A stretch of DNA of 61,140 nt, taken from NCBI GenBank assembly GCA_002361365.1, contig DEST01000115.1, forward strand, positions 1-61,140, given 5' to 3'. The notes beneath the pieces were generated by a model, which searched no databases, was not told the DNA's origin, and was given only the letters and a program-made list of their open reading frames with translations. Numbering within the stretch: position 1 is the first letter of the stretch; each line of letters begins with the position of its first letter. Below are positions 2,984-12,619 of the stretch, in pieces. The DNA is from Alphaproteobacteria bacterium UBA3307 (GTDB lineage Bacteria; Pseudomonadota; Alphaproteobacteria; RF32; CAG-239). A program made the position numbers and the translations under genes.

Positions 2984-5900
2984 TCAGTATGCCGCACAAT
3001 ACGGATGTCTGTAATGAGTTTTCTGACGCTCGTCCTCTGCTTTTTTAGCCTCATTATACTTATTACCGACATCTATATCCGCTTGACGATTTTTAATTTT
3101 TGCTTCCAAATCTTCAAGCTCTTCCGTACCGTTGACGGCGACAATCTCATCGCTATCCGCTTGCAATACAGCAACCTTGTGCATCAATTTTTCGTACTTA
3201 TCGCGAACATTTGCAGACATACCGGCGCCCTTTGGCAAAGATTGCATCTTTTGTAATGCCATATCTATATATATGCCTTTTTCTTCATCAATAGTTTGGG
3301 CAGCCTGATTGTAATCTTGCTCATTGAGCAGATTAAAGTCGTCCGTAATTTCAAAAGTGCCTACCGAAATAGTATCTGCCAATTTTTGACGAATTTCAGC
3401 AATTTGCTTTTCCAACTTTTTCATTTGGTCTGCTACAATCGATTCATACTCCACTTGGTCTAAATAATCCCCAAACTGATTACGGTCATAAAGCACACGA
3501 TTTGCCTGATAAAACCGCATATCCGTTGTCATATCCGAACCGACATCTTCTGTCTTGTTAATTGCATCTATTGCTTTAAGTAAAGAATTATTAAATGTCA
3601 ACCGGTGTGGCAAAGAAGCTATACCCTTATTTCCGACAATAATGCCAGTACCAAATAGGGTACTTAAACCTGATGGCAAGTCAGGAATATAGGCCAAAAT
3701 TGTTCCCAATTCACTACCCTTTATTGCTGTTGTTGAAAGATTATCCTTAACCGGTCTATAGCCTCCGCCGACTTCTTCATCTGCAACAATATTATTACCA
3801 TCTTGATTCGTCAGCTTTATTCCGCGACACTGAGGAAGTTTATTTTGTTCATCAAAGCTGGCCGGACGAGCACTATGATAATACATCGGACCGTCATTTG
3901 TACTTACAACATCTATAACATTGTTCTCGCTCAAACACGGATATACTCCTGAACGCAGCAAAGTCTTTTCATTATCACCTACCAACAAATCGGCCATTTC
4001 TTCTTTTTCTCCCAACAGTTTGGCCCAATCTATTTGCTTTTGCACAAAAGCGTGGTGTTTCATTATATATTTCCATATCTCCGGAACGGTCGAAGCATAG
4101 GTTTTACCGCCATATTCCATTCCGCCGTATTGATTCAAAAACTTCAAAAAGCTCTCAACCGAAATATATACTTTTCTATTATTATCAACATCGTTACGGT
4201 CTGTATAGTATTTATCCATATTATTAAAATCCGCAACATCAAAATGGAAAATCTCACGTACCGGTGCCGAACTGAAGTTTACCGGAGATTTAGGAGCAGA
4301 AAAATCTTGCGGCAAGCCGATTGCGCCAACAAAATATTCGCTATCTTCTTGCGTGCAATTTTGTTCTTTGCAAACATCCGTAAAAATATTAAGCGCCGGT
4401 GTCAAATTTTCTTGCGTATCCGCTGCAAATTCGTGCATTTCATCGATAGCTTCACAATTTTTTAAGTCTGTAAGTTTTATTGCTGTGATTTTTTTAATCA
4501 TATCGTTATGAATTTGCTGAACTTTAGGCGCTGTTTCAACATAATAAAGCTCTTGAGTGGTCTTTAGTTTATCTATTTTTGCTTTTGCTTCTGATACCTG
4601 TTTTAGAGCATAATCGCGTACGCACTGAACCAAGCGGTTTGTCAAATCAAGCGGCAAAACTTCTTCAATAGCGCTATCCAATGCTTTTATTTTGCGGGCA
4701 ACGCGCAGATTTTCTACCAACTCATTGAACATAACCCCTGATTTTGCTTCTGCATCGCTCATATTCTTAACATATTGCACTCGTAATCTTTCCAAATCTT
4801 CTTTTATTTGAGCAACCTTTTCTTGAGCACGTTTGACGATGTTTTCATAGTTTTTAATCTTATTTTCAGCCGATGCCATCACACTTTTAGCCTGAGCCGA
4901 CATTTTTTCATTGTTTTGTCGGGTTTTATTAAATTCGGCATTTTGCGGAGAATCCTTACTTAGCTTTCGGCCGGCATAAATTTCTTGACTGTATTCAACT
5001 CCTTCGGTTGCCTCCGGTGTAGTGGCATCTGCACTTTTTACCATTTCGTGATTTTTATTATATTCCTGATTCAGCTTACTTATTTGGGTGTTAGCATCGT
5101 TGATTATTTTGTACCAATTTTGCAACTCTTTTTGCTTTGTTGCACGATTTTTGGCGTATTCTTCCCGAATTTTTTGGTACTCATCTTCTTCAGCTTTAAT
5201 AGCCGCCTCTATTTGCAAAGTTTCAAAGTTCTCAAAAGGCGTTTCTTTTACGGCTGATTGCGAAACAATAACTCCTCGTTGCTCTTTTAGAGAATCTGCC
5301 AAATCCTGTTTAAGTTCGGGAACTGACTTTTGCAATTCTTTCAACATTTTTTCGGCATCTTTACGTTGTTTATCCGGACTAATCGGCGGAACACCGGAAA
5401 TTGTTTTATACGGATATACCGGATTCAGATTAAGAGCAATTTTAAGCAAAATTTCCATCTGAGACATCTGACTTATATATTCTGCAATATTTTCATATTT
5501 GCCATCAATATATTGGTCATAAAAGTATATCTGGTCGGTCCACAGCGGAAATTTACTCTTGCGCGTTCCCCATTCATTAACACCGGTATCCAAATCCAGC
5601 GCCAGTTCTTTTGCTACTTCAGAACCGATGACCCAACGTATTAAACTATCTTTGCGCGCATTCTCTTTTTCTTCTTCGCCTTTTTGTTGGTCTTTCAAAT
5701 TAGAGGCCGTATCATCAGTCCCTTTATCCGACGTTTGAGTTGTAATTTCATCCAAAAGTTCTTCATCTGCGCTGTCATCTGAACTATGTGAAGTTACAAA
5801 CAAAGCGTCATCATCTTTTTTATTTTCTTCATCAGTATCCAAGCTGATTGTGGCACGAGTTACATATCCGTCTTCTCCGTTTTGCTCTTCCAAAACCTGT

Positions 5901-11653: not shown

Positions 11654-12619
11654 TTAGAATGAGCACGCCGAAATACAGCCGGAATTAGGGTTTTGAGCCC
11701 GACACTCCTGACATTGTTGCTGTTTCATTTTTTTGGTTTCTTCCGCCATTTGCTCTTTGAGTTTTTGTGCCAATTCCTCATTTTGTTTTTTCTGTTCTTC
11801 GGCCGCTTTTTGCTTTGCCGCTTCTTGTTGAGCCTGTTGTTCTGCTCCGGCTTTATTTAAGCTGTCAACGCTACCTGATAATTTGCCGTTGTTGGCGGTA
11901 TTTTTAACCGCACTGCTTAAAACCTCTCCAAAATCATCGCCCTTTGTATTATTGACAATATCCGTACCGGCGCTTGCAATTCCGCCTATTGCACCGATTG
12001 TTGAGCCATCAGTTCCGCCCACTATGCCGCCGACACTTTTAGCTCCTTGATCCAACCATCTGCTCGTGTCGCCGTTTTTAATTGCATCAATAGCGTTTAG
12101 ACCGGAAGTTGTTGTCGCGCGATTACCTTTTATCCAATTATAAGCACGTCCAAAAAATGACTGATTGGCTTTTTTATGTGTTTCTTTTGCTTGTTCCGCA
12201 CCTTTTTTATTTGCCTCGGCATTAGCTTTAAGCTTTTCTTCTTCTTTTTTGGCTCGCTTTGCTCTCTGCCGCTCTTGCCGTTCCTGCACCGATTTTGCGC
12301 TATGTGTAGCGGCGTATGTACTCTCTTGTAAGCCTTTTACATTGTTCCCGAAACGATCATAATCTCCGTTTTGAACTTTGGCAAACAAATCGCCGGCTGC
12401 TGCCGCGTATCCTCCGTTTTGAATTTCTTTTACTATCAAAAGATTGCTTTCAATTTCTTGCTTAATTTGCAGAGCTTGATTCATTGCCACTTGCACGCTT
12501 GAAGCGATACGCTTAATATCCGCCGTTGGCAATGGGAATGCCATACTCTTGCCCGCAATTGAGATTATCATTAACGTTAGTCCCGTTATGAGCCCCATTT
12601 TTTTTGCACTTAACATCAT
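11654..12619 (-). CDS. Secreted VirB5/TrbJ-like protein (321 aa) with a coiled-coil and a Gly-rich segment
   Basis: Signal peptide ending GKSMA, then FPLPTADIKRIASSVQVAMNQALQIKQEIESNL, which resembles VirB5/TrbJ N-termini. K/E/A coiled-coil. Gly-rich tract GGIVGGTDGSTIGAIGGIASAG. First gene after virB4. Confidence 0.55.
   Translation of the reverse strand: MMLSAKKMGLITGLTLMIISIAGKSMAFPLPTADIKRIASSVQVAMNQALQIKQEIESNLLIVKEIQNGGYAAAAGDLFAKVQNGDYDRFGNNVKGLQESTYAATHSAKSVQERQERQRAKRAKKEEEKLKANAEANKKGAEQAKETHKKANQSFFGRAYNWIKGNRATTTSGLNAIDAIKNGDTSRWLDQGAKSVGGIVGGTDGSTIGAIGGIASAGTDIVNNTKGDDFGEVLSSAVKNTANNGKLSGSVDSLNKAGAEQQAQQEAAKQKAAEEQKKQNEELAQKLKEQMAEETKKMKQQQCQECRAQNPNSGCISACSF

Follow-up and report, generated by a model that had tools for sequence, protein, structure and literature searches.

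Inspection of a 61,140-nt stretch of DNA from the CAG-239 Alphaproteobacteria bacterium UBA3307 (GCA_002361365.1, contig DEST01000115.1), referred to here in its full length as the window, revealed a type IV secretion system (T4SS) operon on the minus strand at positions 1 to 17055. The operon is tightly packed, with gaps of 10 to 132 nt between genes. It encodes, in this order, three VirB2 proteins, a 149-amino-acid (aa) exported protein, VirB3, VirB4, five further proteins, VirB8, a lipoprotein, a second VirB8, and VirB9. The five genes between virB4 and virB8 fill the VirB5/VirB6 position and are called the slot genes; their products are designated A to E. A synteny comparison, which a first-pass annotation of this DNA had proposed, revealed that the layout recurs in no fewer than 80 related species. 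The 80 loci examined contain a virB2-virB11 operon that is otherwise complete but in which genes encoding exported proteins of unrecognized fold stand in for the VirB5 and VirB6 genes. The slot genes of the window are as follows.

11654..12619, minus strand: slot protein A, 321 aa; signal peptide; Gly/Asn-rich tail common to C; present only in the subclade of the window species
10109..11632, minus strand: slot protein B, 507 aa; signal peptide; acidic Ser/Gly/Asp tracts; conserved central helical region
8773..10050, minus strand: slot protein C, 425 aa; signal peptide; N-terminal domain of about 240 aa; acidic linker; Gly-rich tail
7470..8753, minus strand: slot protein D, 427 aa from an internal ATG (maximal open reading frame [ORF], 448 aa); signal peptide; coiled-coil middle; conserved C-terminal block
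2984..7459, minus strand: slot protein E, 1491 aa (maximal ORF, 1501 aa); signal peptide; Cys pair; conserved blocks and acidic linkers

Relatives were collected through VirB4 from GTDB species representatives. The best 80 of at least 253 matches were kept and examined; among these, VirB4 identity is 74 to 93%. Nearly all are labeled as uncultured gut or rumen Alphaproteobacteria (named examples are 'Proteobacteria bacterium CAG:495' and 'Candidatus Scatocola'), and their hosts are sheep, goat, deer, yak, horse, rabbit, chicken, and human. The inspected sequence comprised about 61 kb of the genome of the window and about ±10 kb flanking the operon in relatives. Same-species contigs, including strain locus L081, were used to read the operon past window position 1, and its VirB11 end was read from six metagenome loci centered on the VirB10 C terminus. 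Signal peptides and transmembrane (TM) segments were called by hydropathy heuristics (Kyte-Doolittle, 19-residue windows, cutoff of 1.6).

The five ORFs agree in coordinates and sizes with those of the first-pass annotation. An independent gene caller returned near-identical proteins on same-species contigs, namely, 507, 425, 427, and 1491 aa for B to E and 320 instead of 321 aa for A. Each N terminus consists of a basic n-region, a hydrophobic stretch, and an AxA-type site, with predicted cleavage at SMA/FP (A), ACA/EN (B), SRA/DL (C), AQA/FS (D), and AHA/IW (E), so that the signal peptides claimed earlier for all five proteins were recovered by the hydropathy heuristic. The absence of any further hydrophobic helix was likewise borne out: past residue 60, no 19-residue window of A to E reaches a Kyte-Doolittle value of 1.6, while VirB2, VirB3, VirB8, and the VirB4 N terminus score 1.7 to 2.6 in the same scan. 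Across the 80 related loci, 328 of the 333 slot ORFs carry an N-terminal hydrophobic segment. A marginal internal hydrophobic peak was seen in 4 of the 333, the other 329 having none, and the slot of no clade species surveyed encodes a polytopic protein. Because they combine a predicted Sec-type signal peptide with the lack of a membrane anchor, A to E are predicted to be destined for the periplasm or beyond.

Searches with A to E against Pfam revealed no family above noise and no toxin or enzyme domain. Sequence profiles of the Protein Data Bank (PDB) and Foldseek searches with AlphaFold models were empty as well, in line with the earlier statement that most of the slot proteins match nothing known. 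Pairwise BLAST among A to E revealed no paralogy, and an all-against-all hhalign comparison without signal peptides gave nothing under an E value of 0.005 within the clade. The profile comparison suggested in the first-pass annotation thus detected no single paralogous family; the one similarity seen is between the Gly-rich tails of A and C (hhalign 98%, E = 3e-14), which is possibly partly compositional.

Slot protein E is the largest. Its homologues are rare: 5.8 billion proteins include 27, none of which has a name or a Pfam domain. Conserved, Cys-containing blocks extend along its full length, and the further parts are a long coiled coil, an alpha/beta domain at about residues 1070 to 1320, C-terminal helices, and a PYCAxY end motif. 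The label "coiled-coil/low-complexity" that had been applied to all five proteins therefore falls short for E. Over 49 species, E has 18 invariant and 27 near-invariant columns, conserved Cys residues included, and its motifs include HN..KQ.LP, W.DQ..FY.QY...KY, PPLRE.FHFD, NQ.GDYL, and the terminal PYCAxY. An AlphaFold2 model of residues 1000 to 1400, generated from 26 sequences, shows a mixed alpha/beta domain followed by long helices at moderate confidence (predicted local distance difference test [pLDDT], 65.5; predicted template modeling score, 0.58; core blocks, about 80 to 88). PDB profile searches with the D and E family alignments returned only generic coiled-coil matches. The Cag proteins CagL, CagI, CagH, CagM, Cag3, and CagT were absent from the 60 best PDB profile matches listed for the D and E families, and the Foldseek PDB searches with the E-domain and (low-confidence) C models, for each of which 50 matches were listed, showed no Cag protein among these.

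The upstream slot proteins are more variable. A, not C, directly follows virB4, and its conserved N-terminal block reads FPLPT-D...IKQEI..N..I.KEIQNGGYAAAAG. B carries a module of about 72 aa at both termini (window positions 10112-10351 and 11294-11533); over 240 nt, the DNA of the two copies shows 91% identity, and all differences in a core of about 215 nt are synonymous. The module is single copy in relatives (loci L001, L007, L012, and L005), which indicates a recent intragenic duplication or gene conversion. The positional counterparts of C in distant species have about 220 to 260 aa and no tail, the Gly-rich tail having been gained in the subclade of the window. When the C-family profile was run in an exhaustive hidden Markov model (HMM) search against 1.84 billion representative proteins, only 62 matched, none of which bridges to known VirB5. 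The AlphaFold2 model of C, from a 15-sequence alignment, has a pLDDT of 45 and is unusable at this low confidence; it is all-helical, with long helices at residues 24-102, 123-180, and 202-241 and short helices in the Gly-rich tail, and Foldseek found nothing in the PDB with it. By position, C is the strongest candidate for a highly diverged VirB5, an assignment that is unproven.

Comparison of the relatives revealed a conserved downstream end and a variable upstream part of the slot. In loci spanning it, the virB4-virB8 interval holds four to seven ORFs, of which the last two are a D-like ORF (about 390 to 620 aa) and then an E-like ORF (about 1220 to 1650 aa). The D-like ORF, recognized by position and size, lies directly upstream of E in nearly all loci surveyed, and E is detectable by sequence in every slot-spanning locus. 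The slot architecture is alike in a distant member found through E (P0027, 1800 aa). The upstream genes vary in number, and B-like proteins range from 290 to 800 aa. Within the near clade, median identity is 87% for VirB4, 71% for VirB3, and 60% for VirB8a, compared with 36% for A, 36% for B, 28% for C, 32% for D, and 29% for E. Identity in the far clade is 76% for VirB4 and 24% for E; of the 36 far-clade loci, tblastn detected B in 3 and D in 20, and it detected neither A nor C in any.

To describe divergence between strains, window positions 2984-11632 were compared with positions 214-8862 of the conspecific locus L081. The ratio of nonsynonymous to synonymous divergence (dN/dS) is 0.05 to 0.08 for B to E, which indicates that the slot genes are under purifying selection and are real and functional. 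Synonymous divergence (dS) is 0.05 to 0.17 in B to E and 0.006 to 0.012 in the adjacent virB8a and virB8b genes, i.e., about 4- to 30-fold higher in the slot than in the two virB8 genes. Such an excess points to old or recombining allelic lineages and not to decay, and it is suggestive of balancing or diversifying selection acting on the slot. These sequence data suggest recombination or long-lived allelic lineages confined to the slot, whose genes are the fastest evolving of the operon and the most polymorphic between strains.

The machine genes that surround the slot in the window are listed below.

16723..17055, minus strand: VirB2/TrbC pilin paralogue 1 (Pfam TrbC, 8.9e-10; signal-like segment and two TM segments)
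16334..16720, minus strand: VirB2/TrbC pilin paralogue 2 (Pfam TrbC, 5.3e-12)
15948..16427, minus strand: VirB2/TrbC pilin paralogue 3, maximal ORF (Pfam TrbC, 7.6e-5, under the curated cutoff; three hydrophobic segments)
15465..15914, minus strand: hypervariable 149-aa exported protein in the virB2-virB3 interval (N-terminal hydrophobic segment; no Pfam family)
15178..15468, minus strand: VirB3 (two TM segments; weak full-length Pfam VirB3 match, 0.032; 59 to 71% identity in all loci)
12752..15181, minus strand: VirB4 ATPase (Pfam CagE_TrbE_VirB, 3e-14; best solved relative in the PDB, TrwK of R388, 4e-35)
2201..2953, minus strand: VirB8 paralogue a (Pfam VirB8, 1.1e-9)
1863..2051, minus strand: 62-aa lipoprotein in the VirB7 position between the two virB8 genes (lipobox LSAC; SPCAC motif)
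1096..1845, minus strand: VirB8 paralogue b (Pfam VirB8, 3e-25)
1..1079, minus strand: N-terminal part of VirB9/CagX, running off the window (full length, 524 aa; Pfam CagX)

The true start of VirB2 paralogue 3 is probably the internal MKKNVLLLW. The Walker A (GPTGQGKT) and Walker B (LIMIDE) motifs of VirB4 are intact. Residues 19 to 37 of VirB4 form an extra N-terminal hydrophobic helix (Kyte-Doolittle, 2.34), despite the presence of a separate VirB3 gene; this helix may be relevant to the construction of an inner-membrane complex without VirB6. The 149-aa exported protein was detectable in 9 of 18 near-clade loci at about 30% identity and in none of the far clade. It is as variable as the slot proteins and may belong with them to one exposed set.

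Same-species contigs and metagenome loci revealed how the operon continues: virB9 is followed by a gene for a 1621-aa repeat protein, a giant virB10, and virB11, after which housekeeping genes lie on the opposite strand. Just past window position 1, the 1621-aa protein and VirB10 are encoded at positions 12345-17210 and 17213-20750 of L081. The 1621-aa protein matches PF21785 at 6e-113 in 15 stretches; it has one N-terminal TM helix, and nearly all of the rest consists of beta-flower repeats. VirB10 (1425 aa) bears repeats of the same kind, followed by a TrbI domain. VirB11 has 322 to 335 aa in the metagenome loci (T2SSE, 1.2e-23). A scan for promoters and terminators was uninformative, as its counts equal the shuffled expectation.

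With regard to the components of a P-type T4SS, homologues of VirB2, VirB3 (weak), VirB4, VirB8 (two copies), VirB9, VirB10, and VirB11 were found in a single cluster, and VirB6 and VirD4 were found in the operon neither in the window nor in L081 nor in the six downstream loci. VirB6, VirD4, and VirB1 are all absent from the complete virB2-virB11 operon of the window species and its relatives. None of A to E matches Pfam TrbL/VirB6 (PF04610) at E values up to 0.1; as a positive control, the slot protein of a Paracaedimonas plasmid matches TrbL at 1.1e-6. Together with the hydropathy profiles of A to E, this corroborates the previous claim that the slot encodes no VirB6 channel protein. No polytopic ORF was found anywhere in the operon in the 80 loci and the six downstream loci, and a search of the operon for small or hidden TM ORFs gave antisense artifacts only. 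The 61-kb window holds no VirB6-like polytopic protein, its sole polytopic proteins being a GspF-like pilus protein and two ABC transporters. The earlier conclusion that the inner-membrane channel subunit is not encoded here hence extends from the slot to the entire virB2-virB11 operon.

Searching PLSDB for the closest VirB4 proteins revealed four plasmid groups with related T4SS clusters, whose slots are as follows.

Microvirga plasmid (VirB4, 38% identity): 273-aa exported helical protein, 228-aa protein with three TM segments, long exported protein, PCAC lipoprotein
Sphingosinicella plasmid (VirB4, 34%): VirB5-like 252-aa protein, long exported protein, PCAC lipoprotein
Erythrobacter aureus plasmid (VirB4, 33.5%): VirB5 (Pfam T4SS, 6.8e-7), long exported protein, PCAC lipoprotein
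Paracaedimonas plasmid (VirB4, 30%): exported helical protein of 249 aa at the VirB5 position, without Pfam match, followed by TrbL/VirB6 (Pfam, 1.1e-6)

Paracaedimonas keeps the canonical slot arrangement, and Microvirga, Sphingosinicella, and Erythrobacter do not. As in the window, the gene order in the Microvirga, Erythrobacter, and Sphingosinicella clusters is VirB2-B3-B4, exported helical proteins, a PCAC lipoprotein, and VirB8-B9-B10-B11; these clusters also share the lack of TrbL/VirB6, and the slots of Erythrobacter and Sphingosinicella encode exported hydrophilic proteins only. Besides VirB2, VirB3, and the Erythrobacter VirD4, no polytopic ORF was found in the Erythrobacter and Sphingosinicella clusters, the Sphingosinicella stretch examined ending at virB9. 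Unlike the window, the slots of these three plasmids hold two proteins, a VirB5 recognizable by Pfam and a VirB5 paralogue of 430 to 490 aa, to which Microvirga adds the 228-aa three-TM protein; no homologue of the latter was found in the examined loci or the window. These plasmid systems further differ in a MobA/MobL relaxase, in VirD4 after virB11 (Microvirga and Erythrobacter), in VirB9 and VirB10 of normal size, and in a single VirB8.

The Sphingosinicella 252-aa protein is 40% identical to the Erythrobacter VirB5, which itself had no match among PDB sequences. The long plasmid protein (430 to 490 aa) has a signal peptide and a Cys pair in Erythrobacter and Sphingosinicella, where its length with corrected starts is about 460 to 490 aa. 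Its alignment with the VirB5 profile is strong (hhalign 96%, E = 1.5e-9; 4.8e-9 without signal peptides; about 0.3 for the reversed sequence), and as judged by this profile similarity, it is a VirB5 paralogue. Both the disappearance of VirB6 from the slot and the presence there of a second exported VirB5-like protein therefore appear to be older than the gut clade. RefSeq appears to have miscalled the starts of the long proteins in Erythrobacter (L148, 14168-15649; NZ_CP031358) and Sphingosinicella (L150, 7675-9057; NZ_CP035502): in-frame upstream ATGs add a signal peptide and the motif QLG.CP....PPPCIV.D.

The 62-aa lipoprotein of the window, with the motif L.LSPCAC.Q, is probably the VirB7 of this T4SS. 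Plasmid versions located before virB8 in Microvirga, Erythrobacter, and Sphingosinicella read SPCACIQ, TPCACIQ, and TPCACVE. The PCAC-type lipoprotein motif looks like a lineage marker of this T4SS subfamily.

Comparison of A to E with VirB5 was performed by hhalign against a 6-member VirB5 profile, with reversed sequences as controls (E values of 0.03 to 0.7 across these tests). Full-length C aligned at 47% (E = 1.9e-4 over 206 columns; 0.0066 without signal peptides), and the N terminus of A aligned with that of VirB5 at 65% (E = 6e-5 over 54 columns; 0.0084 without signal peptides). The VirB5/TrbJ-like N termini that the first-pass annotation had noticed in A and C gave E values of 6e-5 and 2e-4 with signal peptides included, which weakened to about 0.007 to 0.008 once these were trimmed. 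The C-terminal half of D aligned with the C-terminal half of VirB5 (38%, E = 3.4e-4, 118 columns), and this score was retained without signal peptides (E = 4.7e-4; reversed control, 0.03). The N-terminal domain of E aligned with the long plasmid paralogue (37%, E = 3.6e-4, 214 columns; 0.0095 without signal peptide), and the other domains of E aligned with no VirB5-type profile. No convincing match to the long slot proteins of the plasmids was obtained for D and E. None of A to E matched PF07996 (Pfam 'T4SS', the VirB5 family), for which the Erythrobacter slot protein served as a positive control at 6.8e-7. Descent of several slot proteins from a duplicated VirB5 is weakly suggested by these alignments. 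VirB5 ancestry may be regarded as a reasonable hypothesis, strongest for D, and falls short of demonstrated family membership.

The combined data lead us to propose, with a probability of roughly 0.45, that A to E would be the exported extracytoplasmic module of a chromosomal VirB/Trw-type (P-type) T4SS with neither VirB6 nor VirD4 in its operon, D and E belonging to the core and A to C to the surface of an adhesive machine. D and E, as the invariant pair just upstream of virB8, would be core structural parts and could occupy the place of the VirB5-VirB6 stalk on the VirB8/VirB9/VirB10 scaffold. A, B, and C might be exchangeable distal or surface-exposed parts shown together with the three VirB2 pilin variants, as their coming and going between species and the shared Gly-rich tails suggest. 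The machine itself would be an adhesive or contact pilus resembling Bartonella Trw rather than a translocator from the cytoplasm to a target; this role is the more likely one because the operon contains no coupling protein. Exposure to the host or to phages would explain why the slot genes diverge so rapidly and why their allelic diversity looks recombinant. The combination of fastest-evolving slot genes, no coupling protein, and three pilin variants makes the system a strong candidate for an organelle of contact with a host or partner.

Several results weigh against this proposal. Signal peptides supply much of the VirB5 scores of A and C, and trimming weakens them to about 0.005 to 0.01. An independent C-family set reached an E value of only 0.1 against VirB5, and PF07996 was not among the 25 most-matched families in scans of 37 C-family, 39 D-family, and 19 further C-family members. 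The E-domain model found no fold relative by Foldseek (best E value, 1.1 in the PDB and 0.26 in BFVD), and the C model (pLDDT, 45) is of low confidence. VirB6 is regarded as indispensable for the incorporation of VirB2 and VirB5 into the Agrobacterium pilus (PMC6120205), so that a pilus assembled without it requires a new explanation. Finally, the genes for VirB6 and VirD4 may lie at a different place in the genome, as T4SS genes do in Rickettsiales.

That last idea, in which a canonical VirB6 and perhaps VirD4 lie at another locus and the slot proteins are lineage-specific accessories uninformative about the channel, is quite possible. It is compatible with the extent of the inspection (about 61 kb of the genome and, in relatives, about ±10 kb to either side of the operon), with the essential role of VirB6 in model systems (PMC6120205), and with the TrbL/VirB6 (1.1e-6) kept in the slot of the Paracaedimonas plasmids, which are a more distant relative. 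It has to account for a virB2-virB11 operon in which all other VirB genes stay together, with no polytopic ORF in 80 plus 6 loci, and for the self-contained Erythrobacter and Sphingosinicella clusters, which match in slot layout and have no VirB6 either. Because VirB6 is missing from the whole operon in the window species and its relatives and from the T4SS clusters of the two nearest plasmids with this slot layout, its being replaced or dispensable is a live option. A more far-reaching version, that a whole P-type lineage, made up of gut and rumen chromosomal systems and one group of alphaproteobacterial plasmids, works without VirB6, its VirB5-VirB6 stalk and pilus-assembly platform being replaced by soluble, VirB5-derived, Sec-exported proteins that in the gut clade would have become an invariant pair of about 430 and about 1500 aa with variable surface parts, is less likely than not.

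The remaining explanations concern what the slot proteins do. The slot proteins would unlikely be periplasmic or outer-membrane accessories of the core complex of an "expanded" T4SS, comparable to Cag3, CagM, and CagT or to the Dot/Icm ring proteins. The 524-aa CagX-type VirB9, the 1425-aa repeat-bearing VirB10, and the 1621-aa repeat protein do represent a Cag-like expansion, and export signals and coiled coils would fit such accessories; on the other hand, no sequence or fold similarity to solved Cag or Dot/Icm components appeared among the matches listed, core parts usually evolve slowly while the slot genes are the fastest in the operon, and the genes sit in the VirB5/VirB6 position and not at VirB7-B10. 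It is improbable that A to E are cotranscribed Sec-dependent cargo that assembles in the periplasm and is expelled by a T4SS without coupling protein, as is pertussis toxin by Ptl. Five tandem signal-peptide genes within a VirD4-less operon and the very fast divergence and high allelic diversity expected of host-facing products would suit cargo. The genes lie between virB4 and virB8, however, and not upstream of the machine genes; D and E keep position and size in every species; plasmid relatives bearing a relaxase and VirD4 also hold exported hydrophilic slot proteins, which there are putative VirB5 paralogues; Pfam, PDB sequence, and fold searches detected no toxin or enzyme domain; and Ptl itself keeps the VirB6 homologue PtlD. 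The conservation of D and E and the analogy with the plasmids favor structural parts over cargo. The options of tip or surface proteins, scaffold, and substrates raised in the first-pass annotation are inseparable by sequence alone. Decaying remnants or miscalled low-complexity ORFs, to which the lack of family matches and the low-complexity composition in places might point, are effectively refuted by intact ORFs kept in order in at least 80 species, dN/dS values of 0.05 to 0.08, conserved motifs and Cys residues, and agreeing independent gene calls.

VirB6 is treated as universal and essential in Gram-negative T4SS. In the cryo-electron microscopy structure of the R388 system, it reportedly forms the inner-membrane base of the central stalk. 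A literature search found no description either of the present system or of a T4SS that naturally lacks VirB6. Should VirB6 indeed be absent, the operon represents a natural experiment in building a T4SS without it, and D and E would be new core components. If the entire lineage were VirB6-less, it would use a different inner-membrane platform and a different pilin or substrate route than any solved T4SS. The host clade is an abundant, uncultured, and poorly understood part of the human and ruminant microbiota.

Elsewhere, the window contains chromosomal housekeeping genes (UvrA, EttA, Tgt, fructose-bisphosphate aldolase, and MsbA-like transporters) and a type IVb pilus cluster at positions 17426-33955. 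This cluster lies on the plus strand, divergent from the T4SS operon, so that two surface machines are encoded back to back. Its recognizable genes are the following.

19842-21434, plus strand: PilN-family secretin (TIGR02520, 3e-79)
24489-26213, plus strand: GspE/PilB-type ATPase
26225-27346, plus strand: GspF-like platform protein
32701-33267 and 33242-33955, plus strand: two ORFs with type IV prepilin-like N termini (GRSMIEMLGVLAIIGVL)

Several large ORFs of the pilus cluster (17426-19105, 21457-22701, and 29978-32665) match no family.

Among known systems, Bartonella Trw, which derives from the R388 Trw conjugation system, is one of the closest. Trw has no coupling protein and carries amplified, fast-diverging trwL (VirB2) and trwJ (VirB5) genes, which are thought to provide variant adhesive pili for host-specific adhesion (PMC2883598). 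Both Trw and the system of the window are chromosomal P-type T4SS of host-associated Alphaproteobacteria, with tandem VirB2 genes, no coupling protein, and multiplied VirB5-region genes that outpace the ATPase and core genes in divergence. In Trw, the amplified genes are recognizable trwJ copies, coamplified with trwI (VirB6) and trwH (VirB7). In contrast, the operon of the window has no VirB6, and its slot proteins, which include a 1491-aa giant, are neither recognizable VirB5 proteins nor detectable paralogues of each other.

The Rickettsiales rvh system, also of Alphaproteobacteria, resembles the window in having three to five tandem, unusually large genes after virB3-virB4 and a duplicated VirB8. 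The rvh slot genes encode polytopic VirB6-like proteins, and rvh has VirD4. The slot proteins of the window, by contrast, have no TM helix past the signal peptide, and the operon has no VirD4. The Cag system of Helicobacter pylori is similarly expanded, with a large CagX-type VirB9, a giant repeat-containing VirB10, and several small, exported, helical, system-specific proteins, of which CagL, CagI, and CagH are linked to host contact or to the pilus. The giant repeat-bearing VirB10 of the window species recalls CagY. Cag has the VirB6 homologue CagW and the coupling protein Cag-beta. The VirB4 of the window is, unlike that of Cag, TrwK-like, and CagE is not among its PDB matches at E values up to 0.001.

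Bordetella Ptl is a T4SS without coupling protein that is cotranscribed with five Sec-signal genes. There, an AB5 toxin is encoded by the ptx genes, which are situated upstream of those for the machine, and PtlD (VirB6) is retained, whereas the five genes of the window lie inside the machine operon and encode no toxin domains detectable by Pfam. New with respect to these systems is a P-type T4SS that has no VirB6 in its operon and whose VirB5/VirB6 slot is filled by novel families of exported proteins.

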